A DNA stretch of 38,436 bases, taken from positions 1 to 38,436 of the IMG/VR virus record IMGVR_UViG_2939147180_000005; one strand, written 5' to 3'. Below the pieces are notes generated by a model. The model was not told the origin of the DNA and did no database searches. It saw only the letters and a list, made by a program, of their open reading frames with translations. This stretch comes from a virus. Its lineage: Duplodnaviria > Heunggongvirae > Uroviricota > Caudoviricetes. Both the position numbers and the translations under genes were made by a program. Of this stretch, positions 4,444-33,025 are shown piece after piece; within the stretch, counting starts at the first letter, position 1, and each line of letters opens with the position of its first letter.

Positions 4444-4446
4444 GTG

Positions 4447-9323: not shown

Positions 9324-9325
9324 AA

Positions 9326-11702: not shown

Positions 11703-11705
11703 CAG

Positions 11706-13606: not shown

Positions 13607-13635
13607 ACAGCCTTGCTTTATGAATAAAACGCACC

Positions 13636-13672
13636 CCAGCAGCCAGTGCTACTGGGGCGGAGGTGTTGCTGG
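13636..13672 (-). terminator. Candidate intrinsic terminator downstream of trkG
   Basis: CCCCAG…CTGGGG hairpin followed on the minus strand by TGCGTTTTATTCAT. Confidence 0.35.
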
Positions 13673-13742
13673 TAAAGTTAGGTATTGGATCAATGAGTGA
13701 GTCAATATAATATTAAACTCACAATTATAAATCAGCCATATA

Positions 13743-15200
13743 TTAGGAGCGCCAAAAAAAACCTGAAAACAATATAATAACAGGATAAATTTCAAGGCGA
13801 CCAAGAATCATAGCTATGCACATTAAATATTTTGCAATGTCATTAAGCACTCCGAATGACGATGCAGTAGCCCCAAAACCTAATCCCATATTATTAATAC
13901 ATGCAGCCACTGTTGCAAATGATGTAAGAAAATCATATCCCATACCATTTAACACCAGTATAAAAAACACCGTGAAGAGAGTATAAAGAAAAAAGAAACT
14001 CCATACAGACCTCATTACACGATCTGTAACTATCTTCCCTCCTACATTTACACTCAACAACGCTCTGGGATGAGAAAGCTGATTTATCTCGTGTTTGCTT
14101 TGTTTGAAAAGTATAAGAAATCGAAGTGACTTAATTCCACCACAAGTTGAACCTATACATCCCCCAAAGAAACTTGACGACAGCAAAAACACTATCGTGT
14201 GCGTGGGCCAGTTTGCATAATCCTGCGTAGCTAAACCATTATCAGTGAGCATGGAGCTGGCAAGAAAAAACGAATGAATAAAACTTCCATGCAAGTCATA
14301 CATACCTATATGCCAGACCTGGAAAGAGGTAACAATGATCACCCCTAAGGCTATTAACAGAAAGAAACGAAGTTCAATATCTCTGATTAAAGGTTTTATC
14401 GTTTTCCTGCTAATAACAATATACCAAAGAGTGAAGTTGAAAGCCGATAGCAGGGAAAAAGAACCAGCCACCAGCTCAACCAAATAGTTATTAAAATATC
14501 CGATACTCTCGCTATGAGTTGAGAAACCACCAAGCGAAACTGTGGAAATCCCGTGACAAATAGCATCAAACAAAGGCATTCCTGCAAGTCTATAACAGAC
14601 AATACAAGCAATACCTAATAAAGAATAAGTTATCCACAGTGTCCGTGACGTATCGGCCAGGCGGGGAGTGAGTTTGTCATCCTTAAATGGCCCCGGCATT
14701 TCTGACTGATAAAGCTTTGCACCACCAATACCCAATAATGGCAATACAGCAACCGCCAGAACAATAACTCCTAAACCACCTATAAAATTTAACTGTGACC
14801 GATAGTACAAATATGCCCGAGGTAATGAACTAACATCATCAATTACAGTTGCTCCTGTTGTTGTTATTCCAGAAACCCCTTCAAACAGAGCATCAATGAA
14901 CGTTAAATTAAGTTCTGAGTCAATCCATAAAGGGAATGCACTAATAACAGAAAACAAAATCCAAAACATTACAATTATAATAAACCCATCACGGGTACGT
15001 AATTGAATGCCAGATTTCTTAGTTGTATACCACGCTCCGCCACCAATGCAAAAAAACATAACGAAAGTTATAAAGAAAACGAACAGGCTTTTTTCTTTAT
15101 AAAACAATGCTACAACCATTGGTGGCAACATTGAAAGACTATAGAGCCAAACCAGAAACCCACACATATGAGTAACAACTCTTACATGAGATGTATTCAT
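13743..15200 (-). CDS. trkG: TrkG, Trk-system K+ uptake protein (prophage moron)
   Basis: Translation from MNTSHVRVVTHMCGFLVWLYSL… matches remembered Rac TrkG; multi-pass membrane protein; AT-rich codon usage. Confidence 0.9.
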   Translation of the reverse strand: MNTSHVRVVTHMCGFLVWLYSLSMLPPMVVALFYKEKSLFVFFITFVMFFCIGGGAWYTTKKSGIQLRTRDGFIIIVMFWILFSVISAFPLWIDSELNLTFIDALFEGVSGITTTGATVIDDVSSLPRAYLYYRSQLNFIGGLGVIVLAVAVLPLLGIGGAKLYQSEMPGPFKDDKLTPRLADTSRTLWITYSLLGIACIVCYRLAGMPLFDAICHGISTVSLGGFSTHSESIGYFNNYLVELVAGSFSLLSAFNFTLWYIVISRKTIKPLIRDIELRFFLLIALGVIIVTSFQVWHIGMYDLHGSFIHSFFLASSMLTDNGLATQDYANWPTHTIVFLLSSSFFGGCIGSTCGGIKSLRFLILFKQSKHEINQLSHPRALLSVNVGGKIVTDRVMRSVWSFFFLYTLFTVFFILVLNGMGYDFLTSFATVAACINNMGLGFGATASSFGVLNDIAKYLMCIAMILGRLEIYPVIILFSGFFWRS

Positions 15201-15337
15201 ATCTAAATATTCTTTCAATTATAACCACCTTGCTGCAATATTATGATTATACTGTATAAAATTTAACTCCTCTTAGATCTTACTTCACTGTTCCTTATGA
15301 AACAATCATCAAAATGAATCATATTGTAGTTAAGATT

Positions 15338-15802
15338 TTACTTTAAACACTGTTCGGTTATGTATTGCTGAGCACCTTCAAGTTGGGCCTGCATCATTAC
15401 CAGTCGTTCCCGGAGGGTGAAATAATCCCGTTCAGCGGTGTCTGCCAGTCGGGGGGAGGCTGCATTATCCACGCCGGAGGCGGTGGTGGCTTCACGCACT
15501 GACTGACAGACTGCTTTGATGTGCAACCGACGACGACCAGCGGCAACATCATCACGCAGAGCATCATTTTCAGCTTTCGCATTAGCTAACTCCTTCGTGT
15601 ATTTTTCATCCAGTGCAGCAACATCACGCTGGCGCATCTGCATGTCAGTAATTGCCGCGTTCGCCAGCTTCAGTTCTCTGGCATTTTTGTCGCGCTGGGC
15701 TTTGTAGGTAATGGCGTTATCACGGTAATGATTAACAGCCCATGACAGGCAGACGATGATGCAGATAACCAGAGCGGAGATAATCGCGGTTACTCTGTTC
15801 AT
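15338..15802 (-). CDS. Rz-like i-spanin
   Basis: Start ATG overlaps the endolysin stop (ATGA); N-terminal TM helix then coiled-coil periplasmic domain. Confidence 0.75.
15397..15582 (-). CDS. Rz1-like o-spanin lipoprotein, embedded in Rz in the +1 frame
   Basis: [20 protein letters not shown] lipobox signal, then proline-rich PPPPPAW… mature region. Confidence 0.7.
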
Positions 15803-16296
15803 TGCTGACCCCACAAACAGATTTCACGCTCAATCTCACGACGAGTCATGAGACCTTTCCATTGCTTACCGCCAGCATATGTCCAGCGACGTAGCTGATC
15901 ACATGCGCCTTTGATATCGCCCTGGTTTATTTTGCGAAGAAGCGTCGATGTTCTGAAATTGCCAGCACCCACGTTGTAAACGAATGAGTAAAGAGCGCCG
16001 CGCGTTGTTTCCGGTATATCGACTTCGATGTACGGGTTAATTTGTCTGGCGACAGTGGCAAGGTCTTTATTCAAGAGTGCTTTGCATTCTGCTTTGGTAT
16101 ACGTTTTACCGAGCATGATGTCTTTTCCTGTATGCCCGTGACATACAGTCCATACACCAACAATATCTTTGTATGGTATGTAGCTGACACCTTCCAGACC
16201 ATCGTTACCACTTGGGCCAGTGATTAACACTGATGCTATAGCAATTGCTCCGCCACCAATAGCAGCAGCAACGGCTTTTCGTAATGATGGAGGCAT
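15799..16296 (-). CDS. SAR endolysin (T4-lysozyme-like muramidase, phage 21 R type)
   Basis: N-terminal Gly/Ala-rich signal-anchor-release segment [20 protein letters not shown] followed by a lysozyme-like domain; 1-nt overlap with the holin stop. Confidence 0.85.
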
Positions 16297-17197: not shown

Positions 17198-17272
<75 letters not shown>

Positions 17273-17275
17273 ATA

Positions 17276-17351
<76 letters not shown>

Positions 17352-18514: not shown

Positions 18515-19113
18515 TACGCAAACTCCAGCAGCTGCGCAGCAACATTTTCGACTTGTTCCGGAGAGGAAAATTTACGGAACAGGATCCAGTTCCAAAGCAC
18601 ATTCAGTACGGATTTATAAACCTGCTGAAACTCGGTATCGTCCATGTTCGCAAACGCGATAGATCTTGCCCTGCGTCCACGGCTACCGTCCGGATAAAAA
18701 TGCTCGGTGTAAAATCCGGCCTCAATAGTTACCCATTCACGGAAAGCATCAAATGACTTTAGCAATGCCGTATCACAGGTTCTGCGTATCGCAATGGTAT
18801 TCAGATATTGTTCTGCGGCATCACTCAGGGCTGGCGTATGTTCCCGGCCGACCGAGTCACACAGATAATCAACGAAACCGGACACAAGTTTTCGTTCACG
18901 AGAGGTGATCGCCCCACCGACAGGAGTCCAGTAATCGAATCCGAGTTGCAGGAGTTTGAAAAAACGCTTGTGAAATGCGTAGTTACGAACGCGCTTAAAA
19001 TCAGCGTGTATCCACTCACCTATTTTTATTTGATGCAAGAATTCGCAACTCTCCGATGTTGCCGGGAGCAGTAATCCAGAAGAGGTATGTTTGATCAGTT
19101 GTATATGTGCCAT
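18514..19113 (-). CDS. nin-region protein (DUF1367-like)
   Basis: 199-aa ORF, start/stop overlap with the YbcO-like gene; family from memory. Confidence 0.5.
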   Translation of the reverse strand: MAHIQLIKHTSSGLLLPATSESCEFLHQIKIGEWIHADFKRVRNYAFHKRFFKLLQLGFDYWTPVGGAITSRERKLVSGFVDYLCDSVGREHTPALSDAAEQYLNTIAIRRTCDTALLKSFDAFREWVTIEAGFYTEHFYPDGSRGRRARSIAFANMDDTEFQQVYKSVLNVLWNWILFRKFSSPEQVENVAAQLLEFA

Positions 19114-19179
19114 CGGCTTTCTCCGGTGGCACGGTGTTACTCAGCAGGGGGTCAACCCTGCGCTGAATTGTAGATGAGT

Positions 19180-19440
19180 TCAATCGTCTTCAAAAGCAGA
19201 AAAGCCAGCTTTTAATCCAATTTCTTTTAATGTCCGTAATGATGTGACAAATTCATCTTCACGCAACATAAATCCGTCCGTCACATGCCCATTCAAGAGA
19301 TATATTAACATAGCCCCACTAGGCTGTTGCAAAGCCCGTGAGCAATGAATGCAGTAACAACTAATAATTTCCCCATTTTCAACGCGCACAGCATAGAGAC
19401 CATCTTTATTAAAAATTTTGCGCAACTTCTTGAAATCCAT
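19180..19440 (-). CDS. Hypothetical protein
   Basis: 86-aa ORF with ATG start; no motif recognised. Confidence 0.4.
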   Translation of the reverse strand: MDFKKLRKIFNKDGLYAVRVENGEIISCYCIHCSRALQQPSGAMLIYLLNGHVTDGFMLREDEFVTSLRTLKEIGLKAGFSAFEDD

Positions 19441-19595
19441 AAACAGAAATTTTCCAGATTAATAGCGTTCCCCTGAAGGGTCCATCCCTCTTCTCCCTGC
19501 GCGCTAACTAAGCAAACACGATTCTATTTACAACAGTCAGTCCCTCAAGACTTACGGCTAAAAGAGTACACAAAAAGCTAATTTATCCACCACAA

Positions 19596-19620
19596 CAAAA
19601 AACCCGCCGAAGCGGGTAAG
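19596..19620 (-). terminator. Intrinsic terminator downstream of hok
   Basis: Minus strand reads ACCCGC-TTCG-GCGGGT followed by TTTTTTGT. Confidence 0.5.
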
Positions 19621-19685
19621 TACGGGTGCGTTGAGGATGCCTGACACATCAGAGGTGGCGGGGGATTTCTCCCCCGCCGGGTCTC

Positions 19686-19841
19686 TTACTCCTCAGGTTC
19701 GTAAGCTGTGAAGACAGCGACCTCCGTCTGGCCGGTTCGGATTCGTACCTCGCAGAGGTCTTTCCTCGTTACCAGTGCCGTCACAACGACGGTTAAACAG
19801 ATGACGATCAGGGCGATTAACATCGCCTTTTGCTGCTTCAT
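19686..19841 (-). CDS. hokD: Hok/Gef-family type I toxin (HokD/RelF-like)
   Basis: Translation MKQQKAMLIALIVICLTVVVTALVTRKDLCEVRIRTGQTEVAVFTAYEPEE; missed by the 60-aa ORF cut-off; a stable GC hairpin (19655-19680) follows the stop. Confidence 0.85.
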   Translation of the reverse strand: MKQQKAMLIALIVICLTVVVTALVTRKDLCEVRIRTGQTEVAVFTAYEPEE

Positions 19842-19899
19842 AGCCTGCTTCTCCTTGACCTTTTGGTCGGTAAGAGGCTAATCTACGTATGCAAAGCAT
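19693..19899 (-). CDS. mok-like overlapping leader ORF (modulation of killing)
   Basis: 68-aa ORF in another frame overlapping all of hok, as in hok/mok/sok loci. Confidence 0.45.
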   Translation of the reverse strand: MLCIRRLASYRPKGQGEAGYEAAKGDVNRPDRHLFNRRCDGTGNEERPLRGTNPNRPDGGRCLHSLRT

Positions 19900-19960
19900 A
19901 GATGTGGCCTCAGATTAATGTTAAGCGTCTTGCCGGACGCGTAATGTTAACTGGGGCTTT
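19850..19960 (+). ncRNA. Probable Sok-like antisense RNA region (boundaries not determined)
   Basis: By analogy with hok/sok, the antitoxin RNA is antisense to the mok start region; TTGACC at 19856 is a possible -35; 5' and 3' ends not resolved. Confidence 0.25.
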
Positions 19961-20053
19961 TCTCTATCTGCCTTTGGTGTTCATGCCCGAGGCAGACAGC
20001 CTCAAGCACCCGCAGCTATTCTACTTAACTCCCGTTACCTCGCCAATATGAAA

Positions 20054-20158
20054 TCAATCAGAAAGGTGATCCATAAGAGCAATAGCAAGACCATAGATTG
20101 CCATTACAGCCGCTATAGCCAACGCACATTTCGTAACCAGCACGTTAACCTCCTGCAT
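20054..20158 (-). CDS. Small hydrophobic peptide (29-34 aa); candidate small membrane protein or type I toxin
   Basis: ATG-CAGGAGG-TTAAC-GTG: AGGAGG sits 5 nt before an in-frame GTG; product (M)LVTKCALAIAAVMAIYGLAIALMDHLSD is one TM helix. Confidence 0.3.
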   Translation of the reverse strand: MQEVNVLVTKCALAIAAVMAIYGLAIALMDHLSD

Positions 20159-20444
20159 TTGACACTCGCATGTGCTGATAAATATGTGGATGTCTCACTG
20201 GTGACTCAATAAAACTATTTGGTGTACTTAGTCTATTTTTTTTCTGTGCAACACAACAAACCGTCACCACCAGCACTTCCTAAATGCGCTGAGTCAGACA
20301 CAAGCCAACATTTTAGTCCGCTTTGAGCGAAGAGCGGACATTGATGCCCCCACAGGCTTTGAAAATATTCAATATAATCACTCCTTGAGTATAAGTTATG
20401 TAGCGGAGGAATACATCCGCTACTTTTTAATGTTATGACAGTAA

Positions 20445-23006
20445 TTAATATTTGAATCTTTTGTTTGGTATGATTTTCAGTTTTTTTGCTAAAGCCGTTA
20501 ACTTTCTTAAGCGCCACTTAAGGGTGGACTCAGTTAATCCTTCCCCTGCAATACCTTTAAAAATTTCATAACAAGGCTGACCAGCGTGTATTGCTTTCCA
20601 GAAATCCTCATAGCCGTCATCAAGTATTTGAGCTGTAAGTGCCTCATTAAGCTCTTCAATATTAGATACTGCTAAGTGCCCATCGACTAAAACACCAGCA
20701 TTATTTAAATCAGATTTTGCTTTAAGCGCTTCTTTTCCAGTAGGCTCTTTACCGTTCAGTATCAAGCTGGTAACTTCAATCATTTTAGCGTGAGATGTTA
20801 CAGGGAAGAAAAGCCCTTTATTTCCTGCCCTTAAGCCCGAAATTTTCTTAAGATTTCCTAACTCAGCTGTTGCATCATTATGCGACACATCTGAGGCAAT
20901 AATGCGACCTTCCCCATCAATTTCTATAATTTTTAGGGCAAGTAACCATGACTTTAAAATCGTAGAGTATAATCCCCATGTTTTCTCTGATGCCTCAATA
21001 AAAGGATAAGACTCAGAAAAATACGTGGGTATATCGCTCTCGAAAACTTTTTCTCCAGAAAGAATTTTTTTAAGTAAAGTCTCGACGAGTTGATTGTCTA
21101 AAATTTTTCGGCGTAGATAACCAGCAAGGGTTCCTTGAGAATATATATCCCTAACATTGGTTGGAATTATCCATTCACCACTTTTAACTGCATCAAGCAA
21201 GTCTAAATTCCGCAATTCCTTAACGAGATTAAATGCGTAACCTTCCCTTACATTTAGGTTTTCCGTTATTTTTGTAATTGTCAGCTTTCTCATTGTTATC
21301 AGTTTATGAAACTGGGATATAACAGAGCTTGGATACATTCTATAAATAACCAGCAGTCTAAATTCAGGAAGCTTTTGGTAGACAAGATATTCTTTGAAAA
21401 CATCGTTATAAGTATCATAGGTAGAACCACTCAAGCGTACCAATCTGTAAGCTGTTAACTTATCGAGGACTTTTACAAGCATTGGGTCTTCGTCAAATTG
21501 GTATTGAAGCTCATTGAAATCTGCTGGTAGCTTAGCTGCAATCTTAACTAGATAATCTTTTTCAATCTCATCCAAACCTTCAAGCTCTTCTTCAAAAAGG
21601 TCGTTCAGTTTTAAGCCCGCACTGATTAAATCCCTCTGAGAGTCACCTTTTCGAGTGAGTTTTAAAACATGAGCTATCGTTCTCTTTAAAAGCCAAGGAA
21701 AACCCTGCGCAAATTCAATAATATAGGGTAGTATTTCTTTACTGAGAATATTAGAGTTATTTTCATTTATTTTTTCTAAAAGAAGTATTGATTCTTTGTT
21801 TTCAAAATCCGGAAGAGTAAAGCTTTTCGATAGCTGATTAATTCTATTAAGAGAAACTTTACTGTTGTCATAGGTTGTTAGCTGATCATTTTTACGCGCA
21901 AACACTATGTATACACCACCACGAAGCTTTGTTATTGAGTTCGCAATGTATTCATAGCAATCGAAAATGTCAGGATTCGAGAATGTAGATTCAAATTGGT
22001 CAACAAAGAAAACTGCCTTTTGGCCATTTAGTGAAAGTTGCAAGTCTTTCAGTTGTTCATCAAGTTCTATAAAATTAGTCGCAATAATGCTGCTTTGGGT
22101 AAACCTCTGAACAAGATAAAAAACATCATATATTGTTTTTACATCCCTTGAGTCATGTAATTCAGTAATAACCCCATCCATTGAGAGCTTGTTTTCTAAA
22201 AAGGATACAAGAGAGCTTTTTCCTACTCCAGAGCGACTTTTTATCTGAAGAACATGTGGTAGCTCATTATGTTTGATGTGAGAAAGAAGTTCACCTATGA
22301 ATTCAGTCCTGCCAACGAACACAGTTGGCCCTGCAGGTAGCCTATAGTCAGCCCATTCAGTCCCAACAGTTAATCCTCGAACTATTTCACGCTTTACTTG
22401 AGGCATTTCGTCAACTATTTTTTTCTTGCTAGGCATAATGAAATCCAAACCAGCAAGTTCTGAAATCCCTATTTTTAAATTTTCCAAAAATCTTTCATCA
22501 TCAATTTGGCTGCCACTTTTATTGAATACCACAAAATTTGATGGCGTTCCTGAATTTACCTCTTTTAAAATAAATAACTTATACAACCCCGTATCAGTCT
22601 TGAGAATGTTTGGGGCCACAAGGTCATAACCTTTAATTTCCTTATGTAGAGATGTTTCAGTCGGCAAATGCAAAGTCGCAGTTATTTGGTTATAAAGTTC
22701 CTTTCCTACCTTTGTCGTTAACCCCATATTTTCGACAGTTCGAAAATAATCTTCCGCCTCCGGTGTTAATGGTGATAATGACAGAAATAATCCATGCACC
22801 TTTTTTTCCAGAAGACCTAGCGGCAAAAGCTTTCCAACGAACGCAGCAACTGTTTGTCCACTCATGCTTTTGCTGTGTGCTTTAGCTTCGCCAATAATCT
22901 TTTGGCCAGTTGCTCTAGAGAATCCTTCAATGTCGTACTCTAAACTAGATTCTTTTTTCCTTAACTCAATGTCGTATCCAGAGCCTTCCAAGTATTCTTT
23001 TAACAA
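20445..23006 (-). CDS. Mrr-like PD-(D/E)xK nuclease fused to a STAND-type P-loop NTPase with a C-terminal helical domain; candidate antiphage defence protein
   Basis: 853-aa ORF, AT-rich. N-terminus …YDIEG…IIGEAKAHSK (D…ExK); P-loop HVLQIKSRSGVGKSSL; Walker B AVFFVDQFE; GxP-like AQGFPWLL; ~400-aa C-terminal region without recognised motifs. Start is TTG at 23006; no upstream ATG. Confidence 0.6.
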   Translation of the reverse strand: MLKEYLEGSGYDIELRKKESSLEYDIEGFSRATGQKIIGEAKAHSKSMSGQTVAAFVGKLLPLGLLEKKVHGLFLSLSPLTPEAEDYFRTVENMGLTTKVGKELYNQITATLHLPTETSLHKEIKGYDLVAPNILKTDTGLYKLFILKEVNSGTPSNFVVFNKSGSQIDDERFLENLKIGISELAGLDFIMPSKKKIVDEMPQVKREIVRGLTVGTEWADYRLPAGPTVFVGRTEFIGELLSHIKHNELPHVLQIKSRSGVGKSSLVSFLENKLSMDGVITELHDSRDVKTIYDVFYLVQRFTQSSIIATNFIELDEQLKDLQLSLNGQKAVFFVDQFESTFSNPDIFDCYEYIANSITKLRGGVYIVFARKNDQLTTYDNSKVSLNRINQLSKSFTLPDFENKESILLLEKINENNSNILSKEILPYIIEFAQGFPWLLKRTIAHVLKLTRKGDSQRDLISAGLKLNDLFEEELEGLDEIEKDYLVKIAAKLPADFNELQYQFDEDPMLVKVLDKLTAYRLVRLSGSTYDTYNDVFKEYLVYQKLPEFRLLVIYRMYPSSVISQFHKLITMRKLTITKITENLNVREGYAFNLVKELRNLDLLDAVKSGEWIIPTNVRDIYSQGTLAGYLRRKILDNQLVETLLKKILSGEKVFESDIPTYFSESYPFIEASEKTWGLYSTILKSWLLALKIIEIDGEGRIIASDVSHNDATAELGNLKKISGLRAGNKGLFFPVTSHAKMIEVTSLILNGKEPTGKEALKAKSDLNNAGVLVDGHLAVSNIEELNEALTAQILDDGYEDFWKAIHAGQPCYEIFKGIAGEGLTESTLKWRLRKLTALAKKLKIIPNKRFKY

Positions 23007-23350
23007 CTCTTCAAAAAGTAACCCCTTGTAATAACTAGTGTTTTTTCAGTTTGTTCAGAGTGAAAAAATAAAAACATTAAACAACTCCATGTAACTATTA
23101 TTGATGAGTTATAACGCTCATTAAATTGGTCAAACCGCACTTAAAACGTGGCTTCCCCATACTAGAAAATCTACTATAAAGAGGATTACATTGCACCTTT
23201 AAATTTTAGAGATTTATAAGTGAGACTAATAATCTCGCACTGTATAATCGCAGGGTAACACATCTTTCAAGCGCCTAGGTGCTCAGATATAAGCCAGATA
23301 TTAATATAGTGCTCACTATTCCTCGAAAGACCTAGAATGACCGCTTCCGG

Positions 23351-24556
23351 CTGTGAGTTCAATCAGTGGATGCAACGCTATCCTTAATCAAGGGGGACGT
23401 TGCCATGAAACGAAGAACTCGGATTAACTACACGCCAGAGCAGAAGGCAATTATCTGGGACAGATATAAGCAAGGTGATTCTCTCCATGATATCGCCAGA
23501 ATGTTCGACAGATATCATTCTTCCATTATGCCCACTATCCACCAGACAGGGAGCTACCGTCCTCCCGTGCGAAAACGGTACCGATTAGCGCTTTCGCTTG
23601 ATAAAAGAGAGGAGATATCCAGAGGAGTGGTAGCAAAACTCAGTATCAGGGACATCGCCGCCAAATTATCAAAAGCGCCTTCAACGATTAGCCGCGAGGT
23701 CAGGAGGCACGGAGGTGCCAAACAATACCGTGCAGCAAAAGCCGATACTGCTGCATGGGAAAATGCTCTGAGACCAAAACCTTGCAAGCTAATTGAAAGC
23801 CCACATTGTGTAAAATCATTGCAGAGAAGATGCATCAGGACTAGTCGCCGGAACAGATCGCCGGCTGGCTGAAACGCTGTTATCCGGATAATCAGGAAAT
23901 GCATGTGTCACACGAAACGATTTATAAAACGCTTTTTATACAAACCCGGGGTGCATTAAAAAAAGAACTGCAGCAATGCCTCAGAAGCGGAAGAGCGGTT
24001 CGTAGATCCAGAACATCATCGCTTAAAGGGAAAGGGTTAGGGTCAATCCCAGATACGATACCAATAAGCGAAAGGCCACCTGAAGTTGCAGACAGAGCCA
24101 TACCGTGTCACTGGGAAGGTGACCTGATCCAGTGCTCGAAAAACTCCTTTATCGTCACCCTCGTAGAACGCCATTCCCGCTTTGTTATGCTGGCAAAAAT
24201 CAGAGACAACAAGACCATAACGGTTATATCTGCACTCATCAGACAAGCCCGGGAATTACCTGTTGAGCTTTATAAAACACTAACATGGGACCGGGGCGCT
24301 GAAATGACCAGCCATACCCGGTTTACTGTAGCGACAGATATTCAGATTTATTTCTGTGATCATCAATCTCCATGGCAACGCGGCTCAAATGAAAATACAA
24401 ACAGATTACTCAGACAGTATTTTCCAAAAGGAACTGACTTATCAGTTCACACAGTGTTGCCAGACAGCTCAACGAGCGGCCAAGAAAAACGCTAGACTAC
24501 GAATCACCCGCAGAACGGTTCAATAAGTGTCTTGCGTCCATCAGTTTAACTCACAG
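23351..24556 (+). mobile_element. IS30-family insertion sequence with decayed transposase
   Basis: Imperfect terminal inverted repeats CTGTGAGTTCAATCAGTGGATGCAACGC (23351-) and CTGTGAGTTAAACTGA on the opposite strand (-24556); internal ORFs are homologous to IS30 transposase. Confidence 0.7.
23366..24495 (+). pseudogene. IS30-family transposase, disrupted by a frameshift near 23806-23810, an in-frame TAG at 23842-23844 and a C-terminal frameshift
   Basis: N-terminal HTH part (23366-23872) and DDE catalytic part (23899-24495, …HWEGDL…TWDRG…QSPWQRGSNENTN…) are in different frames; the bridging frame reads …KIIAEKMHQD*SPEQIAGWL… where IS30 has Trp. Confidence 0.75.
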
Positions 24557-24689
24557 CGAAAAGCAGAAGTTCAAAATTTTTCATAACGACTGATGAGAAC
24601 AACTCCAATTATCAAGTTTACTGGTACCTCTGCCAAGCGTACTTAGAGGTCTATGTCTAAACCACCCGCCATGCAGGTGGTTGATTTAC

Positions 24690-26294
24690 CTAATTAGGCC
24701 TTGCTTGAATCGCAGACTCTATAGCTTCTCGGAATTCCGGAGCATCACTTCTTAATCGATAATCATCAAGTGTATTGAATATTTCTAGAAGTTCTTTACG
24801 ATAATACGGCGATGCCAAATTACCTTCGCCTCTAGTTGTGAAAATTAATAATGAGTCAGCGACGTCTTTTAATTTTTTATTCCTTTTCAATCTAATGTAA
24901 CAAGACACAATTATACCAAGAATATCTTTCCTAGATTTCAAAGTGAGTTTTGAATTAGGCAAAACCAACTCCAACATAGCACCAAGTAATTTGGTAGCCT
25001 CTTTTGAAATATAATGAAGATCGAAATTTTCTGTTTCTTTATTTTCTTGAAGGATGTCCCTTTCATCTATCCATTCGCATTGTTCTGCCCAATTTATAGC
25101 GATGCTAAATAAATGACAGAGAAGGAAGTGAAAAGGTGTTTCCCATTCACCACTATATTCATTCGACTGCCTATTCATATTCTTTATGATTTTCTTTGCA
25201 AAATGTGTATAGTAATGCAGCCATAAATGATCCTGAAGCCCCTGATGAATACCTTCATGAACCATGATTTCAAACAGCGTGATCCCAGAGTAAATAGGAC
25301 ATTTATACTTCGAAACATCTGAATAAGAACCTAAAGATTTATTAAGTGTAGCAATAATTTTTTCATCTTCATCTAACCTCCAGTAGATATATTCACCGAT
25401 GTCACGGTATATTGCTAAATCAGCCGCAAACTTAGCATTGGAAAAGAAAAAATGTAATATACGATTGTTTTTCGGGATCAACAAACGATGCCCTCGACTA
25501 ACGTTAAGATTATTTTTAAGCTCAACATATAGACGACTGTTAGGTGAATCTAGTAATGCACTGATAAAATTAGAAGTAAAGTCAGAACGAACTATTGGTT
25601 CGATCTTGATTAACTCAAGGCAGAGGGATGGGTGCGCAAGTGCAAAGTGATTGGTAAGTTCAGGTGATGAGACAATATTTAATAATGCTTCATGTGCATA
25701 TTCGGCAGCAGTCTCGCGATTAGAGATGCGGAGATTGTTAGCTATCTTATCACAAAGTCGATTCTTCACCGGACTATCAATTATTGATATCAACTTTTCT
25801 AGTTGAGGTGCCAACAATTGTGCCAGATCATCGTATCGTTTAGTAAGGTGCAAATTTTCCACTAACTCTAGAAATATTCCTGTTCTTCCAACTGAAAGTT
25901 TAGGTTTTTTTAAGCGAAATAAAATGTAAATAGCAACTGCGAGTGATATCAGGTATACGGCACTTGAACTATCTAATCCCCATTTCCAGGGGCCAAAACT
26001 AAAATATAAGTCTAGTGATTTTAAAGCTGGTGCAAACACCAAATAATTGCTTAGTAAGAATGCGAAACCAACAATTGCCCAATCCCACCACGCCAGGCAG
26101 AACCTCAAACGTAGTCGAGCGTTTGGAGTAATAAGGGCCCATACGGCAGCAATAACGCCCAGTATGGTAAGTAGACTTGAAGTATCAATTTTGGTTGGCG
26201 GTGTCATAATTTCTCTTGTAATCATGGTTTGATGTACATCGGAATGGCTTAACATGATAAGGCTCTTTGTATTATAAATCAGAACATTATGCAC
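24690..26294 (-). CDS. Membrane-anchored protein of unknown function (N-terminal TM helices plus ~430-aa cytoplasmic domain)
   Basis: 534-aa AT-rich ORF; hydrophobic helices in …LLTILGVIAAVWALI… / …WAIVGFAFLLSNYLVFAPAL… / …VYLISLAVAIYILF…; start ambiguous (GTG 26294, ATG 26255, or ATG 26207 with AAGAGA RBS). Confidence 0.6.
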   Translation of the reverse strand: MHNVLIYNTKSLIMLSHSDVHQTMITREIMTPPTKIDTSSLLTILGVIAAVWALITPNARLRLRFCLAWWDWAIVGFAFLLSNYLVFAPALKSLDLYFSFGPWKWGLDSSSAVYLISLAVAIYILFRLKKPKLSVGRTGIFLELVENLHLTKRYDDLAQLLAPQLEKLISIIDSPVKNRLCDKIANNLRISNRETAAEYAHEALLNIVSSPELTNHFALAHPSLCLELIKIEPIVRSDFTSNFISALLDSPNSRLYVELKNNLNVSRGHRLLIPKNNRILHFFFSNAKFAADLAIYRDIGEYIYWRLDEDEKIIATLNKSLGSYSDVSKYKCPIYSGITLFEIMVHEGIHQGLQDHLWLHYYTHFAKKIIKNMNRQSNEYSGEWETPFHFLLCHLFSIAINWAEQCEWIDERDILQENKETENFDLHYISKEATKLLGAMLELVLPNSKLTLKSRKDILGIIVSCYIRLKRNKKLKDVADSLLIFTTRGEGNLASPYYRKELLEIFNTLDDYRLRSDAPEFREAIESAIQARPN

Positions 26295-26576
26295 ACGGTT
26301 AACAATACCCTCAAAATGGCATTAATTAAATGGACACTACTTGTCCACTCAGTTTTTTTAGTCGGCTTTTTCCGACTAACGTTTGGATGTCCTATTGAAA
26401 TTACGCGCCTTACATGAGCAACACTGCAACTGCATGTTTATCATAGGGATTGTGCTAATCAAATTACTGAAGCTTAAGGTCCGCCCCTGGCACAAAACAG
26501 ACAACCACGCTAGCCGTATCCTGTGCCATGAAACTGTCAATTCACATATGAATTAGTGGTCTTTAATCTCGTCACT

Positions 26577-26993
26577 TCAATAAATACCAACATTCCCCTG
26601 ATAAAATGCTAATACACGCTGCATAACTTCACTCTTCCGGCACTCGCGACAAATTATGTTCTGACACCTGTCGTAGCGGCGTATTTCTCCGTCTGGTAAT
26701 GACCAGATAAGGTCAGGATCAACCATAACCGGTTCCTTCGACTTTGCCCTCGAGAGTTTTTTGCGGGCGTTTTGCCAGTCTTGACGTGCCTGCTCAGACG
26801 GAAATAACCCATAGCCAGAGTTGTATACGTCACCACTCGAAACCAGCTCTTTGGCGAGAATACTTATCAGATATCTGGTTGCCCCTGTTTTAGCTTCCAG
26901 TTGTCGTAACGTCTCTCGCCCGCTCTGGCGTACGAGATCAACAATCTGCCCTTTAATTTTTTCTCGCTCTTCCTGTGTTAATACTTTTGCCAT
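26577..26993 (-). CDS. Hypothetical protein, possible DNA-binding
   Basis: Start at MAKVLTQEEREK… with AGGGGAGGG RBS; C-terminal CQNIICRECRK cysteine cluster. Confidence 0.5.
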   Translation of the reverse strand: MAKVLTQEEREKIKGQIVDLVRQSGRETLRQLEAKTGATRYLISILAKELVSSGDVYNSGYGLFPSEQARQDWQNARKKLSRAKSKEPVMVDPDLIWSLPDGEIRRYDRCQNIICRECRKSEVMQRVLAFYQGNVGIY

Positions 26994-27009
26994 AAGCCCT
27001 CCCCTGGAA

Positions 27010-27735
27010 TCACTTTTCCGACACAATACGACTGGAGGAATCGACAATCTGACGGACAATGTCCTGGTGCTTGTTCAGCTCACGCAGCGCGGCGCAGACT
27101 CGCTCCCACTTCTGGACATGACTTTTCGCCCGGCGCAGTTCGCGGTTTGCCATTTGCAGCGATGGTAAAATCAGGTCATTGGCTCGCGTTTCAGTGAACG
27201 ATGGTAGTGACTGCACAATGTCCCCCACAGTATCTGTTTTAATTTCTTCCTGTGTTGCCGCTTCCTGTACTGGTAACGCAACACCGGCTGGCTGAGGAAA
27301 GCCTTTACCAGGTGTTTTAACTACCGATACAACTTTCGGCTCTGCTGGTAAATTACCGTCCGGCAGGCAGTAATGAAATTTACCGTTCTGATTTACGCGA
27401 ATCAGACGACCTTTGCTGATGGCCATAGCCAGCGATGAGTTCACCCTGCGGGAAGTAATTCTGAATATCAGTGCAAGTTCATCAGCCGCTTTAGGGCCAT
27501 GCTGTTCAATCGCCTCGATCAGCATTTGCGCTGTCACTTTAGAAGCCTGTGCCACAGATGCGTTTTCGTCGGTTTGAGTCAACCACCACATCGGGCCCTT
27601 GTTATCAGCTTCCCCGCGACGCTTCAGTTTCCACAGCTCGTTAATCGCCTCATCCCGGGTCATTCCCAGACGTGCTGCCACTTCCTGGGAAGAGGCTTTT
27701 CCCATTGCTTTCAGTGCGTCAAAAACGGTCTCCAT
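27010..27735 (-). CDS. Prophage protein downstream of the DnaC-like gene (YdaW/DUF1627-like)
   Basis: Start METVFDALKAMGK… with GGGAGG RBS; N-terminal HTH-like region; family from memory. Confidence 0.45.
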   Translation of the reverse strand: METVFDALKAMGKASSQEVAARLGMTRDEAINELWKLKRRGEADNKGPMWWLTQTDENASVAQASKVTAQMLIEAIEQHGPKAADELALIFRITSRRVNSSLAMAISKGRLIRVNQNGKFHYCLPDGNLPAEPKVVSVVKTPGKGFPQPAGVALPVQEAATQEEIKTDTVGDIVQSLPSFTETRANDLILPSLQMANRELRRAKSHVQKWERVCAALRELNKHQDIVRQIVDSSSRIVSEK

Positions 27736-29806: not shown

Positions 29807-30017
29807 GAATACCCTTACCCGCCCGCTTTGCCTTACGATATTTGTCATAGATATTTGAGTCGTACTGAAGCTCCCCGCCAGATGCCTCTTGCAGACGCAT
29901 CGCGCGGCCTTCAGGAACCAGTTCCCCCCATTGAGAAACAGCAGATGGATCAACGCCAGCAGCTTTCGCCACTTTGGCTTTCGTGCCGTAATAATTAATT
30001 ACGTCTGATTTAAACAT
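29790..30017 (-). CDS. ydaS: Cro-like HTH regulator (YdaS-like)
   Basis: Start MFKSDVINYYGTKAKVAKAAGVDPSAVSQW… with GGAGG RBS; HTH motif; divergent from racR across an operator-bearing spacer. Confidence 0.65.
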   Translation of the reverse strand: MFKSDVINYYGTKAKVAKAAGVDPSAVSQWGELVPEGRAMRLQEASGGELQYDSNIYDKYRKAKRAGKGIHENQA

Positions 30018-30026
30018 TGCACCTCC

Positions 30027-30049
30027 AATATTGAGTTTTCTCAATGTTA
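30027..30049. promoter_or_regulatory. Operator-like palindrome in the racR/ydaS divergent control region
   Basis: AATATTGAGTTTTCTCAATGTTA (TTGAG-N-CTCAA dyad) in the 77-bp spacer between the divergent HTH genes. Confidence 0.5.
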
Positions 30050-30094
30050 ATCACTCAAGGAATCTCAAGTCAAGGGTTATTAAGATATCTAAAT

Positions 30095-30502
30095 ATGAAC
30101 GAGAAAACTTTAGGTCAACGAATTAGAGAAAGACGCAAGCAGGTAGGCTTAAGTCAAAGTGGTTTAAGCAAAGCTGCTGGCGTTTCTGGCTCATCAATTT
30201 CATTATGGGAAAGTGACCATACAGCCCCGCGTGGGCAAAATTTGCATAGACTCGCCGAGGTATTACAATGCTCACCGACCTGGATACTGTTCGGTGATGA
30301 GGATAAAACTCCGGATGCCCCAGTTTCACTCAATAGCCCCTTAGACTTATCGGAAGATGAACTGGAGATGTTGCGACTGTATCGCGCACTTCCAAAATCC
30401 GAACAACAAGCACAAATCAGTGAACTCAGCGCTCGAGTTGAGAATTTTAATCGCCTATTTACTGAGCTATTAGAAGCTCGCAAGCGTAACAAACATCAAT
30501 AA
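30095..30502 (+). CDS. racR: Prophage repressor RacR (XRE-family HTH)
   Basis: MNEKTLGQRIRERRKQVGLSQSGLSKAAGVSGSSISLWE… is an XRE HTH; matches remembered RacR. Confidence 0.8.
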   Translation: MNEKTLGQRIRERRKQVGLSQSGLSKAAGVSGSSISLWESDHTAPRGQNLHRLAEVLQCSPTWILFGDEDKTPDAPVSLNSPLDLSEDELEMLRLYRALPKSEQQAQISELSARVENFNRLFTELLEARKRNKHQ

Positions 30503-30555
30503 TCACCCCATCACAAATTTTTAAAGCCTTACATTTCAATGTATTGGCTTTATCT

Positions 30556-30617
30556 TGAGTCAAATATTGAGTTTTCTCATCAAAAACACTTGACCAAAAA
30601 CAATGAGAAAACTAAAT
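30556..30617. promoter_or_regulatory. Second operator cluster (OL-like) downstream of racR
   Basis: AATATTGAGTTTTCTCA at 30564-30580 and its inverted copy AATGAGAAAACT at 30602-30613, plus CTTGAGTCAA at 30554-30563. Confidence 0.45.
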
Positions 30618-30770
30618 TACATCCCATCAAAACACCGCACGGTGTTCTCAGCAAACAGTTCCGCCACCCGGCGTTAAGGGGATACGAAGATGATCGCAGA
30701 TGAAAAGCAGGGACTGGTGTTAAAAATAGATACCAGCCCCCTGAGACATCAGATTGAGAAGTTATACAAA

Positions 30771-30962
30771 CTACTTGTTCCTGCGGTTTTTAACTGTCCG
30801 GATGATTTTATTGATTGTTTTATTAAAGTGTTCACTGAAATCAGAATCTTTGATTTCCGCAAAACAATCACCGCAGATAAAACGATCATTGTCAGAGCCA
30901 GAGTGCTCATCGATCTCAATGTAGCGAGATCGGCAATGAGGACAGCGAAATTTAATATCCAT
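30771..30962 (-). CDS. Small zinc-ribbon protein (possibly YdaF-like)
   Basis: MDIKFRCPHCRSRYIEIDEHSGSDNDRFICGDCFAEIK… has two CxxC pairs; AAGGA RBS; fully antisense to an alternative plus-strand ORF. Confidence 0.45.
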   Translation of the reverse strand: MDIKFRCPHCRSRYIEIDEHSGSDNDRFICGDCFAEIKDSDFSEHFNKTINKIIRTVKNRRNK

Positions 30963-31057
30963 AATTAATATCCTTACAGCAAATTACCATTTGTAAGGAT
31001 ATCACCTCACCTGATGTGGTTAAAAGCAGGTCGTAGGCTCCACGATACGGAGCAACT

Positions 31058-31255
31058 ATGAAGCCAATTCCCCCAGCGTTAAGGGAAAATGAGGTCAACA
31101 TGGATACTATCGATCTTAGCAACAACGAATCCCTGGTGTGTGGCGTGTTCCCCAACCAGGATGGAACGTTCACCGCCATGACGTATACCAAAAGCAAAAC
31201 GTTTAAAACCGAAGTTGGCGCGCGTCGCTGGTTGGAGAAGTACACAGTAAGCTAA
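31058..31255 (+). CDS. Small protein (YdaG-like); alternative start at 31100 (MDTIDL…)
   Basis: GGAG RBS before ATG 31058 and GAGG before ATG 31100. Confidence 0.45.
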   Translation: MKPIPPALRENEVNMDTIDLSNNESLVCGVFPNQDGTFTAMTYTKSKTFKTEVGARRWLEKYTVS

Positions 31256-31707
31256 CGATTAAAACGTCTGCTCCTACTGTTCCAGAATAACTTCATAAAG
31301 TGGGAGTATTTTTCGGTGACGAGATAATAAGAACAGTTTGCGCCATCACTCTGATGTTGAATGATGCCCTTCCGTTCTAATTTTTTCATAACCGGGTTAC
31401 GGCAAGGAGAAGTGATAATAAGATTTCCTGTTTTAAGGAAATCTTTAAATACAGCGATTTCTTTCTCAGATAAACGAAGCAATACTCGTTGCTCTGGTAG
31501 CAATGAATAATGTTTTTGAATATGTGCTCGCAATCTTGAGAAGGAAATGGCAACCACGAAAGAAAAGGCAAAAACTATAATCTGAAAGAGCCAGGTTATT
31601 TCAGTATAAGCATTAAATACGACAGCAAACTCTTTCGGTATCAGCCAGAGAGTGAGGCCAAAAATGATAATCGTGTACATAAGTCTTTCGATGTGGCTCT
31701 TTAGCAA
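31252..31707 (-). CDS. sieB: SieB-like superinfection exclusion membrane protein
   Basis: 151-aa ORF with two N-terminal TM helices (…MYTIIIFGLTLWLIP… / …WLFQIIVFAFSFVVAISF…); position between immunity region and kilR. Confidence 0.55.
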   Translation of the reverse strand: MLKSHIERLMYTIIIFGLTLWLIPKEFAVVFNAYTEITWLFQIIVFAFSFVVAISFSRLRAHIQKHYSLLPEQRVLLRLSEKEIAVFKDFLKTGNLIITSPCRNPVMKKLERKGIIQHQSDGANCSYYLVTEKYSHFMKLFWNSRSRRFNR

Positions 31708-32182
31708 AAAGTTTCAACAATGGAGTAAATACATCCAACATTTCAATAACTCTCGACTGTAAGGGTATTGAAATGTTAACACAAGCTCTCGCTGTAGGGG
31801 TATAGCCGAGACCACCGAAGCCCGGAGGTGGTGAAATAAAACCGGGCACAACACGAAGGCGCATTTCCGATATCCATAAAGAGTCGGTCTTGTCTGTTAA
31901 ATATAAATGGTGGGAGTGCGCCTCCGGTTGTGAATAACGACATTGCTGTGTGTAGTCCTGGCGGCATCAGTTTTTTTCTTGAAGTTCGGCTGATGTCCGC
32001 CCTTTTTAAAGTGAATTTTGTGATGCGGTGAATGCGGCTAAGCGCACGTGGCACAGTTAAAAGTCATGTTAGTCCTTATTGGTTTGGGTGGGAAAGCCGA
32101 CTGTAATTGTTAACTGGTTGCAGTCACCTGGAGGCACCAGGCACCGCATCAACAAAGTTCATTTGTAAAAATGGAGATAATT

Positions 32183-32404
32183 ATGATTGCACATCACTTC
32201 GGAACTGATGAAATACCACGTCAGTGTGTGACTCCTGGCGATTATGTTCTTCATGAAGGCCGGACATATATTGCCTCGGCAAACAATATTAAAAAGCGAA
32301 AACTATATATTCGTAACCTGACCACAAAAACATGCATTACTGACCGCATGATTAAAGTCTTCCTCGGTCGTGATGGTTTACCTGTAAAGGCGGAGTCATG
32401 GTGA
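32183..32404 (+). CDS. kilR: KilR, FtsZ-inhibiting killing protein
   Basis: [73 protein letters not shown] matches remembered KilR; GGAG RBS. Confidence 0.8.
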
Positions 32405-32574
32405 TGACTAAGAAAATAAAATGTGCTTACCACCTTTGCAAAAAAGACGTTGAAGAAAGCAAAGCTATTGAAAGAATGCTTCACTTCATGCACGGGGTTT
32501 TATCAAAAGACGAACCGAGAAAATATTGCAGTGAAGCTTGTGCCGAAAAAGACCAGATGGCACATGAACTTTAA
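32404..32574 (+). CDS. ydaE: YdaE-like small Cys-rich protein
   Basis: 56 aa, [56 protein letters not shown]; start overlaps kilR stop (TGATG); below the ORF-track cut-off. Confidence 0.75.
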   Translation: MTKKIKCAYHLCKKDVEESKAIERMLHFMHGVLSKDEPRKYCSEACAEKDQMAHEL

Positions 32575-32648
32575 TTAATTGACTATTCGAAACTGAATTT
32601 ATGCCAGAAATGGCAGGTATTCGCTCAACCTTAATTAAGGAGAAAAAC

Positions 32649-32924
32649 ATGATTACCAATTATGAAGCCACTGTTGTAACTACCGATGACATTGTTCACG
32701 AGGTGAATCTGGAAGGAAAGCGCATTGGCTACGTAATTAAAACAGAAAATAAAGAAACCCCATTCACTGTGGTTGATATCGATGGTCCATCAGGCAACGT
32801 AAAAACACTTGATGAAGGTGTCAAAAAAATGTGCCTGGTGCATATCGGAAAGAATCTGCCCGCAGAAAAAAAAGCCGAATTTCTGGCAACTCTAATTGCA
32901 ATGAAATTAAAAGGTGAAATCTGA
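32649..32924 (+). CDS. racC: RacC protein
   Basis: Start MITNYEATVVTTDDIVHEVNLEGKRIGYVIK… with AAGGAG RBS; matches remembered RacC. Confidence 0.8.
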   Translation: MITNYEATVVTTDDIVHEVNLEGKRIGYVIKTENKETPFTVVDIDGPSGNVKTLDEGVKKMCLVHIGKNLPAEKKAEFLATLIAMKLKGEI

Positions 32925-33025
32925 AAGAAATAGCCTGCGTATGGCGCAGGCTATGAACAGTGTGTATCCGGCAAGATCATTCACTGAACAAAACGAATTT
33001 TAATCTGAGTTGAGGTTAAAAAACA

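Follow-up and report, generated by a model that had tools for sequence, protein, structure and literature searches.

A 6.2-kb cargo block bounded by conserved 24-nt sites in a variable slot of an Escherichia coli Rac prophage

The window analyzed here is the whole of IMG/VR virus record IMGVR_UViG_2939147180_000005 (Caudoviricetes), 38,436 nucleotides (nt) in length, and the subject of this analysis is an AT-rich stretch near its center that holds a gene for an Mrr-like nuclease joined to a STAND NTPase, an IS30-family insertion sequence (IS) and a gene for a membrane protein of 505 residues (505 aa). This stretch is a 6.2-kb foreign cargo in a variable slot of an Escherichia coli Rac prophage. 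The explanation that best accounts for the observations as a whole, and that we hold with fairly good confidence, is that the cargo consists of two cassettes and entered as a unit via recombination within the 24-nt sites at its ends.

Positions 19000-27500 of the window match five complete E. coli chromosomes at 100%. In one identical record (NZ_CP095088), the annotation assigns the enclosing 38.5 kb to a Rac prophage inserted at ttcA, with intR/xisR at ttcA, recET, kilR, sieB and ydaS-V-type early genes as hallmarks. Early rightward transcription of the prophage corresponds to the minus strand of the window. Read in that direction, the genes are intR, xisR, ralR, recT, recE, racC, kilR, sieB, a cI/cro-like pair, ydaT, a ydaU-like gene, ydaV, DUF1627 and DUF977, then the cargo, and beyond it hokD, DUF1367, DUF1364, DUF1133, tRNAs, lysis genes, trkG and head genes. 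The features of the cargo block, with the two types of boundary site designated L and R, are as follows.

20316-20339, plus strand: L-type boundary site at the left cargo end, GTCCGCTTTGAGCGAAGAGCGGAC, with 7-bp inverted arms and a 10-nt center; exact match to the consensus
20400-20423, plus strand: GC-rich terminator-like hairpin followed by a T-run, just past the stop codon of the STAND gene on the opposite strand; found by consensus scan only
20445-23006, minus strand: gene for an Mrr-like PD-(D/E)xK nuclease, nSTAND1 NTPase and helical/winged-helix C-terminal region; 853-aa remnant with a TTG start
23007-23078, minus strand: lost 5' end of the STAND gene, codons 1-24 out of frame, from DNA alignment and translations against the island copy described below
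23339-23351, plus strand: left half of a degenerate L-type site split by the IS, GACCGCTTCCGGC
23352-24555, plus strand: dead IS30-family element, ISCfr4-like, with TGTGAG...CTCACA ends and a 2-bp GC target duplication
24556-24568, plus strand: right half of the split L-type site, GCGAAAAGCAGAA
24690-26207, minus strand: 505-aa membrane protein of an uncharacterized family, with three N-terminal transmembrane (TM) helices, an all-alpha solenoid and a conserved HEGIH motif
26479-26502, plus strand: R-type boundary site at the right cargo end, GTCCGCCCCTGGCACAAAACAGAC, with a decayed 3' arm

The block (20315-26493; 6,179 bp) has a GC content of 0.388, or 0.367 when the IS element is left out, compared with 0.468 for the remaining window. 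Sliding 1-kb windows give 0.45-0.47 at 19-20.5 kb, 0.35-0.39 at 20.5-23.5 kb, 0.43-0.47 across the IS element, 0.36-0.39 at 24.5-26.5 kb and 0.48-0.54 thereafter. The lowest GC among 399 other windows of 6,179 nt is 0.442, making the drop in the block the deepest in the window. GC at third codon positions is 0.30 in both cargo genes versus 0.45-0.67 in the neighboring phage genes. Shallower AT-rich patches are found elsewhere in the prophage, at trkG, a known Rac cargo (13743-15200, within 13.5-15.5 kb; GC about 0.39), and in the immunity/early-left region (30000-33000; GC about 0.40-0.43).

An earlier reading of the sequence alone had placed an AT-rich island at 19900-26560, between the replication module and nin/Q-type genes, with a sharp fall in base composition at about 20.2-26.3 kb. 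The fall is borne out by sliding-window GC, GC at third codon positions sets the cargo genes apart, and the Rac gene order confirms the position between DUF977 and the hokD side. The genes it had named are likewise present: the nuclease/NTPase gene, the IS30-family element, the membrane protein gene and hok to the left. Some details needed revision. The island exists, but its real borders are 20315/20316 and 26493/26502; the two cargo genes are AT-rich, but the IS element between them is not; and the small hydrophobic open reading frame (ORF) counted as cargo is real but lies outside the transferred block, in a segment common to other prophages.

Comparison with related prophages reveals that the interval itself is variable. 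Rac relatives that are 97.5-98.6% identical from DUF977 to ydaT hold differing cargo at this position (individual loci are referred to below by L and a number). The cargo of L227 and L228 includes DUF4145, a protein of the metallo-beta-lactamase (MBL) fold, a PDC-S32/AbiJ-like protein and an annotated anti-phage dGTPase; in L228, the Rac prophage of strain S40, it is bounded by sites at 3193-9009 and has a GC content of 0.381. Within L228, about 115 nt (6036-6150) match, at 92-95% identity, the ends of P4-type integrase genes from several hundred genomes of E. coli, which suggests, from this sequence match, that part of the S40 cargo derives from the integrase end of an island. L229 (NZ_CP038859, Rac at ttcA) has just small ead/Ea22-like phage genes between DUF977 and hokD (7372-8970) and may represent the state that preceded the arrival of any site-bounded unit. 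In 60 IMG/VR lambdoid contigs, the stop of DUF977 and the start of hok are 1.08-4.8 kb apart, with a median of 1.8 kb; the 6.7 kb of the window is longer than in any of these. An artificial empty-site junction of both flanks had no single-piece match, and related prophages always contain at least 1 kb of other DNA there.

A survey of 5,426 complete E. coli genomes found the entire block in 33. Of these, seven carry it in Rac at 99% identity or more; the remaining 26 or so carry it at 98.7% identity in another, CP4-type island, for which the example read is that of EC1515 (L002). That island encodes YagK/YfjJ-like (Gp2-like) proteins, a YeeP-type GTPase, DUF932 and antirestriction proteins, and its flanks have no similarity to Rac. 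A phage collection of 50,697 records yielded no copy of the block. Horizontal acquisition at a variable locus, as proposed from the sequence alone, is supported because Rac relatives differ in cargo and because the block also resides in an unrelated island; the relatives do not uniformly carry these genes, as L227, L228 and L229 demonstrate, and their comparison defines the breakpoints. One could instead suppose that the low GC marks an old, vertically inherited part of Rac that differs in function or amelioration and was never acquired, and the other AT-rich patches of the same prophage (trkG and the immunity region) would fit that supposition. Yet the block occupies Rac in a mere 7 of 5,426 genomes, the closest Rac relatives hold different cargo or lack any, and the same block sits in an island without relation to Rac. 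The genome survey and the cargo of the relatives rule out vertical inheritance of the block, to which we assign next to no credence.

The borders of the block coincide with the two 24-nt sites. The window resembles the island copy over 20315-26493, and its similarity to other prophages extends up to 20339-20342 on the left and resumes from 26475-26488 on the right, the latter in Rac relatives. The overlaps of homology are thus the two sites themselves, which places both crossovers that brought the cargo into Rac (or into the island) inside L and R. As single-stranded DNA, the window L site has a folding energy of -7.4 kcal/mol (z = -3.2). The close relative L228 has GCCCGCCCCTGGCACAAAACAGAC at the position matching the window R site. 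The island copy has both site types at the matching ends, with an additional L site 18 nt past R that opens a second unit, itself ending in R; four sites (10002, 16165, 16207 and 17487) are found in L002 where 0.05 are expected.

The island comparison also resolves the internal organization of the cargo. L105 and L106, which belong to the same island type and lack both the STAND gene and the IS, carry the 505-aa gene alone between an intact L and an R site. Their L site reads GTCCGATATGAGCGAGGAGCGGAA and is followed by the sequence that lies directly right of the IS in the window. The split L-type site in the window once bounded the 505-aa cassette. At the inner end of the STAND unit an R site would be expected, but none can be recognized any longer. 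The block is made up of two formerly separate cassettes that now move together, with the IS30 element between them. The proposal of a single module therefore stands as regards acquisition and requires amendment in that two cassettes have been fused, the borders are conserved sites and the nuclease/NTPase gene is damaged. We rejected the possibility that the two cargo genes form one two-gene system: neither is called beside the other in other taxa, and the separate cassette of the 505-aa gene in L105 and L106 contradicts it.

The IS element was delimited by alignment to plasmid copies that are 92-93% identical to it; a repeat finder missed its inverted repeats. Its terminal repeats are TGTGAGTT...AACTCACA, flanked by GC on either side, and the layout of the split site is GACCGCTTCCG[GC] / IS / [GC]GAAAAGCAGAA, so that the element lies in the central GC of the site with a 2-bp duplication. 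The transposase matches the IS30 profile of NCBIfam (transpos_IS30, NF033563; 196.7 bits against a cut-off of 80) and the Pfam domains HTH_38 and rve. It is broken by a frameshift and a stop into ORFs of 168 aa (23366-23872) and 198 aa (23899-24495), and RefSeq labels it 'frameshifted; internal stop', so the element is inactive. ISCfr4-like elements split R-type sites at the central GC, again with a 2-bp duplication, in L127 (516-1739) and L165 (1660-2881), loci of two other species. With the window, these make three clean independent insertions. In L144 (1042-2262), from another species, such an element follows the left half of an L-type site and the right half is not recognizable. IS30 prefers near-palindromic hot spots and cuts with a 2-bp stagger (PMC9333248), and the insertions in the central GC of L and R fit this preference. 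Judged by these insertion points, L and R look like specific hot-spot targets for ISCfr4-like elements.

The sites are far more widespread than the block. The L consensus is GTCCGCTnTGAGCGArrAGCGGAC and the R consensus GTCCGCTyyTGGCACrrAGCGGAC, each of 24 nt, and sequence logos built from 145 L and 130 R instances have nearly invariant arms and centers. L is the reverse complement of R save at positions 11 and 14, in the central loop, and the sites have short conserved flanks: AA(G/Y) precedes them at the 5' side, and RTT follows L. Because of this near complementarity and the conserved flanks, each unit possesses imperfect terminal inverted repeats of 24-27 nt, and adjoining units meet in an imperfect inverted doublet. 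Of 5,426 E. coli genomes, 1,997 contain the L motif, each at 1-6 places, and in the 40 records listed it always falls in unannotated DNA; R-spacer-L junctions were detected in 253 E. coli genomes. MG1655 has no good sites in e14 or CP4-57. An exact-pattern scan returned more than 120 stretches, and the 80 loci listed (L107-L186) come from dozens of Enterobacterales species, with Erwinia, Pantoea, Klebsiella, Citrobacter, Enterobacter, Serratia, Rahnella and Kluyvera among the genera. More than 119 stretches with sites were found in viral contigs, where the arrangement follows the same grammar as in the species loci.

That grammar is L-cargo-R, 14-18 nt, L-cargo-R, and it is found in prophages, islands, chromosomes and plasmids. 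In 75 of the 80 species loci all sites are co-oriented, and successive site pairs are LR in 70 cases, RL in 68, LL in 17 and RR in 8. The R-to-L gap measures 14-18 nt in 51 of 68 cases, and the L-to-R distance ranges from 152 to 7,130 nt with a median of 1,480. Arrays were read beside intE of e14 (three units), in islands like CP4-57 and CP4-6 and in the Rac prophage of strain S40; those of L100 and L101 lie at 10828-14919 and 12000-16069, respectively. TUM1880 is one strain with an array beside e14. In the CP4-57-like island a junction parts Tmn from retron Eco8. The cargo of E. coli units is largely of defense type and includes Tmn (2e-175), retron Eco8, dGTPase, PDC-S32 and an LmuA-like protein of the MBL fold. 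In other genera, ordinary accessory genes fill the units, among them LysR regulators (32 of the 80 loci), SDRs, dehydrogenases/oxidoreductases and transporters. A search of the open-access literature with 15-16-mers of the sites found no description of them, which does not in itself prove novelty.

The first cassette of the block encodes what appears, from sequence and structure model, to be a tripartite effector-STAND-sensor protein with an architecture like that of Avs. Its 302 homologues, typically 874-880 aa long with a family norm of 877 aa, extend from Proteobacteria to Firmicutes and Planctomycetes. Pfam nSTAND1 (PF20703) is matched at residues 228-403 with 33.1 bits against a cut-off of 27.1, and most homologues have this hit precomputed. 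Mrr_cat (PF04471) reaches 20.1 bits in the window copy, below its cut-off of 21, and is hit by full-length homologues. In 70 aligned sequences, the nuclease residues E23, D49 and E64-x-K66 of the PD-(D/E)xK motif are invariant, as are F22, the Walker A residues G284, G286, K287 and S288 (GxGKS, 284-288) and the Walker B sequence DQFE (360-363). The structure model (pLDDT 83) contains the nuclease, the NTPase and a helical/winged-helix C-terminal half. A Foldseek search with it gave Orc1/Cdc6 AAA+ proteins and Avs4 bound to phage portal (8dgf) as best matches, E about 4e-7; Avs4 ranks fourth among these (E = 4e-7) with a low TM-score. The protein has no NCBIfam match and matches no PDB entry by sequence or profile. 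No relative of the 505-aa gene is called alongside homologues in Pantoea (inside a conjugative element), Vibrio or Pseudomonas. By analogy with Avs, the C-terminal domain would sense a phage component, whereupon NTP-dependent oligomerization would activate the nuclease.

The window copy is damaged at its 5' end. Relative to the intact island copy, a 1-bp deletion in an A7 run of the coding strand (about 23041) breaks the frame, and RefSeq starts the window protein at the TTG. Codons 1-24 correspond, by alignment and model, to strand beta-1, most of helix alpha-1 and the invariant F22 and E23. The frameshift is common to all copies in the Rac context; those in the island are intact, at 877 aa, and encode WP_021536679. 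Beyond the 3' end of the gene, the terminator-like hairpin at 20400-20423 could, if it acts as its sequence implies, stop transcription coming into the cargo from the hok side.

The second cassette encodes the 505-aa protein, whose N-terminus forms three hydrophobic helices and whose remainder is an all-alpha solenoid that resembles solely HEAT/ARM-like and designed repeat proteins. All 164 hits of the family are from Proteobacteria. HEGIH (317-321) is conserved in at least 90% of sequences, H321, D326 and E354 are invariant, and H327 belongs to the conserved cluster; the combination HEGIH...D326 H327...E354 suggests, from residue conservation, a zincin-like metal site. Searches found no PDB relative by sequence or profile and no match to a peptidase family or fold. 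The cluster is also reminiscent of the idea of the Lit protease of e14, which the same absence of a peptidase match leaves without backing. Homologues reside in integrase islands of P. aeruginosa, in Delftia and in Klebsiella elements, with no STAND gene called alongside; the Delftia homologue adjoins a Lamassu-like operon. We infer that the 505-aa protein is a candidate stand-alone defense or exclusion factor. The Mrr-nSTAND1 family and the family defined by three TM helices, solenoid and HEGIH are both candidates for phage-challenge work.

The backbone genes and small features that adjoin the block are as follows.

19686-19841, minus strand: hokD toxin gene, 51-aa ORF, backbone neighbor outside the block, annotated in NZ_CP095088
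19836-20011, minus strand: hok leader and sok antisense RNA region, Rfam RF01794 (sok), 105.2 bits against a gathering threshold of 59, E = 9e-24
20054-20143, minus strand: 29-aa hydrophobic ORF MLVTKCALAIAAVMAIYGLAIALMDHLSD, outside the block, with a GTG start 6 nt after an AGGAGG Shine-Dalgarno sequence
26577-26993, minus strand: DUF977 gene, last backbone gene of the replication module (Pfam DUF977, 1.4e-29; NZ_CP095088 annotation)

The hok/sok type I toxin-antitoxin system is canonical here. The 29-aa ORF, located between the L site and the hok leader, has 79% amino acid identity to its counterparts in L004 and L005 and occurs in 20 of 81 lambdoid sequences, a set made up of the window and 80 IMG/VR loci; the segment containing hok/sok and this ORF is 83-95% identical to other prophages. 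The ORF, very hydrophobic in sequence, may encode a second small membrane toxin. Elsewhere in the window, an IS3-family element (9699-10912) interrupts the terminase small-subunit gene (9295-11702) and sieB (31252-31741) is frameshifted, so the prophage is defective. RefSeq annotates tRNA-Gly and tRNA-Thr genes in the identical record; they lie downstream of DUF1133, at 17198-17351 on the minus strand.

The course of events that best joins these observations is one in which the block would have entered Rac as one unit, by recombination inside the two conserved 24-nt end sites, with the dead IS30-family element having inserted in the central GC of the boundary site between both cassettes. As to what acts on the sites, we see an even chance that L and R are recognition sites of a dedicated recombinase or transposase that works in trans, with an integron-like or pdif-like logic. 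A dedicated enzyme is the likeliest agent because the sites are conserved in two types, keep a fixed spacing and follow a strict order. That the sites serve as short homologies for RecET, Red or RecA seems to us doubtful, and that they have some other primary role, rather unlikely. Extended beyond this locus, the proposal becomes that of an undescribed trans-acting system of cassette mobilization, widespread in Enterobacterales, whose recombination sites or ends are L and R; this we advance tentatively, rating it somewhat below even. Such a system would move individual genes and small operons between lambdoid prophages, e14-type and CP4/P4-type islands, plasmids and chromosomes, carrying mostly anti-phage cargo in the mobile elements of E. 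coli, and would supply the missing mechanism by which defense loci are swapped between unrelated elements. The genes of the CP4-type islands (Gp2-like YagK/YfjJ, YeeP GTPase, P4 integrase and AlpA) were considered as the linked enzyme and rejected, as they are absent from 75 of the 80 loci outside E. coli and likewise from most viral loci.

Three other accounts have to be set beside a dedicated recombinase. RecET-type enzymes can use homologies of a few tens of base pairs, and short conserved sequences that by chance flank accessory genes might be exchanged by RecET, lambda Red-like functions or RecA with no dedicated enzyme at all. At either end the crossover does fall within 24-27 shared base pairs, Rac has its own genes for RecE and RecT a few kilobases away, and neither a linked recombinase nor target duplications were found. 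Chance homology nevertheless sits poorly with a 24-nt sequence kept from Erwinia to Escherichia, with two site types held distinct at two central positions, with strict L/R alternation, co-orientation and an R-to-L spacing of 14-18 nt, and with the location of most chromosomal arrays of other genera outside phages; we regard this account as a minority possibility. An improbable variant makes L-cargo-R a non-autonomous transposon with imperfect terminal inverted repeats of 24-27 bp, mobilized by a transposase in trans and forming arrays by insertion beside existing ends. The near identity of L to the reverse complement of R, apart from loop positions 11 and 14, would provide such terminal repeats, and whole units recur with both ends in unrelated contexts. 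Two loci have direct repeats of the kind it predicts: L125 contains one unit (548-2291) between identical 15-nt spacers (TGACCCGGGCGCAAG), and the three-unit array of L100 is bordered by CTAAACA on each side (10821-10827 and 14920-14926). These may be traces of insertion with duplication; they do not amount to a general signal. The constant spacing between units, moreover, is unusual for DDE transposons, no candidate transposase was found, and the sole transposase family seen near the sites, IS30/ISCfr4-like, ends in unrelated sequences and treats L and R as targets rather than as termini.

The sites might, alternatively, be primarily expression elements at the ends of accessory operons (insulators, RNA-processing hairpins or operators), the breakpoints being a by-product. 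Consensus L sites fold stably on both strands, the sites are intergenic and lie at gene ends, and in lambdoid loci the R site follows the DUF977 stop at a nearly constant 51-76 nt and the L site lies about 500 nt ahead of hok. Against this stand the absence of a T-run, by which the sites are not intrinsic terminators, the lack of a match to any Rfam family, and the excess of one-sided over compensatory substitutions in the arms. Gene orientation within units is not fixed relative to L and R, so that a promoter-side or terminator-side role misfits. A reading of the sites as intrinsic terminators, as promoters or as members of a known RNA family found no support, and we think the expression-element account an improbable one as well.

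Several observations weigh against entry of a defense cargo through sites served by a dedicated enzyme, and they bear on different parts of that reading. No recombinase or transposase lies consistently near the sites in the species and viral loci, and Rac and e14 carry just their own integrases. Target-site duplications around units show no excess over shuffled pairings. Both L and R are missing from L229, a close Rac relative, and thus not every backbone includes the sites. The transfer of the block was not recent, because 45 substitutions and 5 insertions or deletions part the Rac and island copies. A mechanism that relies on a folded hairpin is disfavored in that the window R site barely folds and that arm substitutions are mostly one-sided, with few compensatory double changes; the logo instances were chosen by likeness to the arm consensus, and this covariation result is hence biased. 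The one-sided substitutions point to sequence-specific recognition rather than to a merely structural hairpin. As regards defense, the STAND protein matches no PADLOC v2.0.0 model at E <= 0.01, and its window copy is, on balance, probably inactive or weakened; the 505-aa protein likewise has no PADLOC model at that threshold and no Pfam domain at E <= 10. Since the units of other genera carry accessory genes, defense characterizes the cargo of E. coli mobile elements rather than the site system.

Comparison with described systems highlights what the block shares with each of them and what sets it apart. The STAND protein is like Avs, and Avs4 (8dgf) especially, in its N-terminal Mrr-like PD-(D/E)xK nuclease, its STAND/AAA+ NTPase with Walker A and B motifs and its putative C-terminal sensor. 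Unlike Avs4, it has about 877 rather than about 1,540 residues, an NTPase of the nSTAND1 type and a helical/winged-helix C-terminus in place of a long TPR array; neither an Avs nor any other PADLOC model and no PDB sequence matches it, and the window copy is 5'-truncated.

The arrangement of the units recalls integrons, in which promoter-independent cargo units likewise lie between short imperfect inverted-repeat sites, form multi-unit arrays and recur in different replicons. Compared with attC, the R-(14-18 nt)-L junction takes the form of an inverted doublet of 24-27 bp, imperfect in that it carries two conserved mismatches. In contrast to attC, it lacks RYYYAAC/GTTRRRY boxes, the logos having GTCCGCT/AGCGGAC arms with just AA(Y) and (R)TT flanks; no intI or attI is annotated beside the arrays in L002, L100, L101, L105, L106 and L228; the genes of a unit point either way; and the breakpoints fall at both unit ends rather than at one point in a single attC. 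In the pdif modules of Acinetobacter plasmids, which depend on XerC/D, cargo lies between oppositely oriented short recombination sites with the 11-6-11 geometry of dif. The units described here resemble them in the oppositely oriented short sites that flank the cargo, in the absence of an internal transposase and in movement between unrelated replicons. They differ in that L and R are unrelated to dif in sequence, have a 7-10-7 geometry and, in neighboring units, persist as a separate R and L plus a spacer.

Two further classes of short element invite comparison. REP/REPIN elements are short extragenic palindromes targeted by IS elements (PMC1525189). L and R share with them the form of short extragenic palindromes arranged as inverted doublets with a short spacer, conservation within an order and use as IS targets. 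Unlike REP/REPIN, they occupy 1-6 places per E. coli genome and are present at all in just 1,997 of 5,426, with essentially none in K-12 e14 and CP4-57; their doublets bracket variable genes in a strict grammar and have no GTAG-type head. The sfx sites of the R64 shufflon, acted on by the Rci recombinase, have the core GTGCCAA (PMC4176322), and the center of the R site reads GTGCCA(A/G) on the opposite strand, for example at 9493 in L048 (GTCCGCTTTGTGCCAATAGCGGAC). Unlike L and R, whose GTCCGCT/AGCGGAC arms are symmetric, sfx has TCCGGTACGTGG on one side only, and the shufflon inverts segments of one gene with no exchange of cassettes; the resemblance may be due to chance.

The closest parallel in genomic setting is with the defense hotspots of P2- and P4-type elements, where fast-changing AT-rich defense cargo lies in a fixed slot between conserved phage genes and near-identical systems are found in other kinds of mobile element as well (PMC9122126; PMC13586616). 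In a study of P2/P4 defense hotspots from September 2026, the mechanism of exchange with unrelated elements is given as unknown, with transposons and flanking homology not implicated, and its text does not mention hairpins, inverted repeats or palindromes (PMC13586616). Like these hotspots and like lambdoid morons, the Rac slot holds swappable AT-rich cargo of defense type, and a slot with AT-rich, probably defensive cargo is in itself an ordinary case of a prophage hotspot. The interest lies in the site-bounded edges and their recurrence: Rac and a CP4-type island share this 6.2-kb cargo, and in each it is bounded by the same two 24-nt sites. If the sites are recognized during exchange, the question becomes testable by simple trap or excision assays, and the sites could be a cheap sequence handle for finding new accessory and defense genes. 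Unlike the P2/P4 hotspots, then, the slot described here belongs to a Rac/lambdoid prophage, and the edges of its cargo are set by specific conserved sites.

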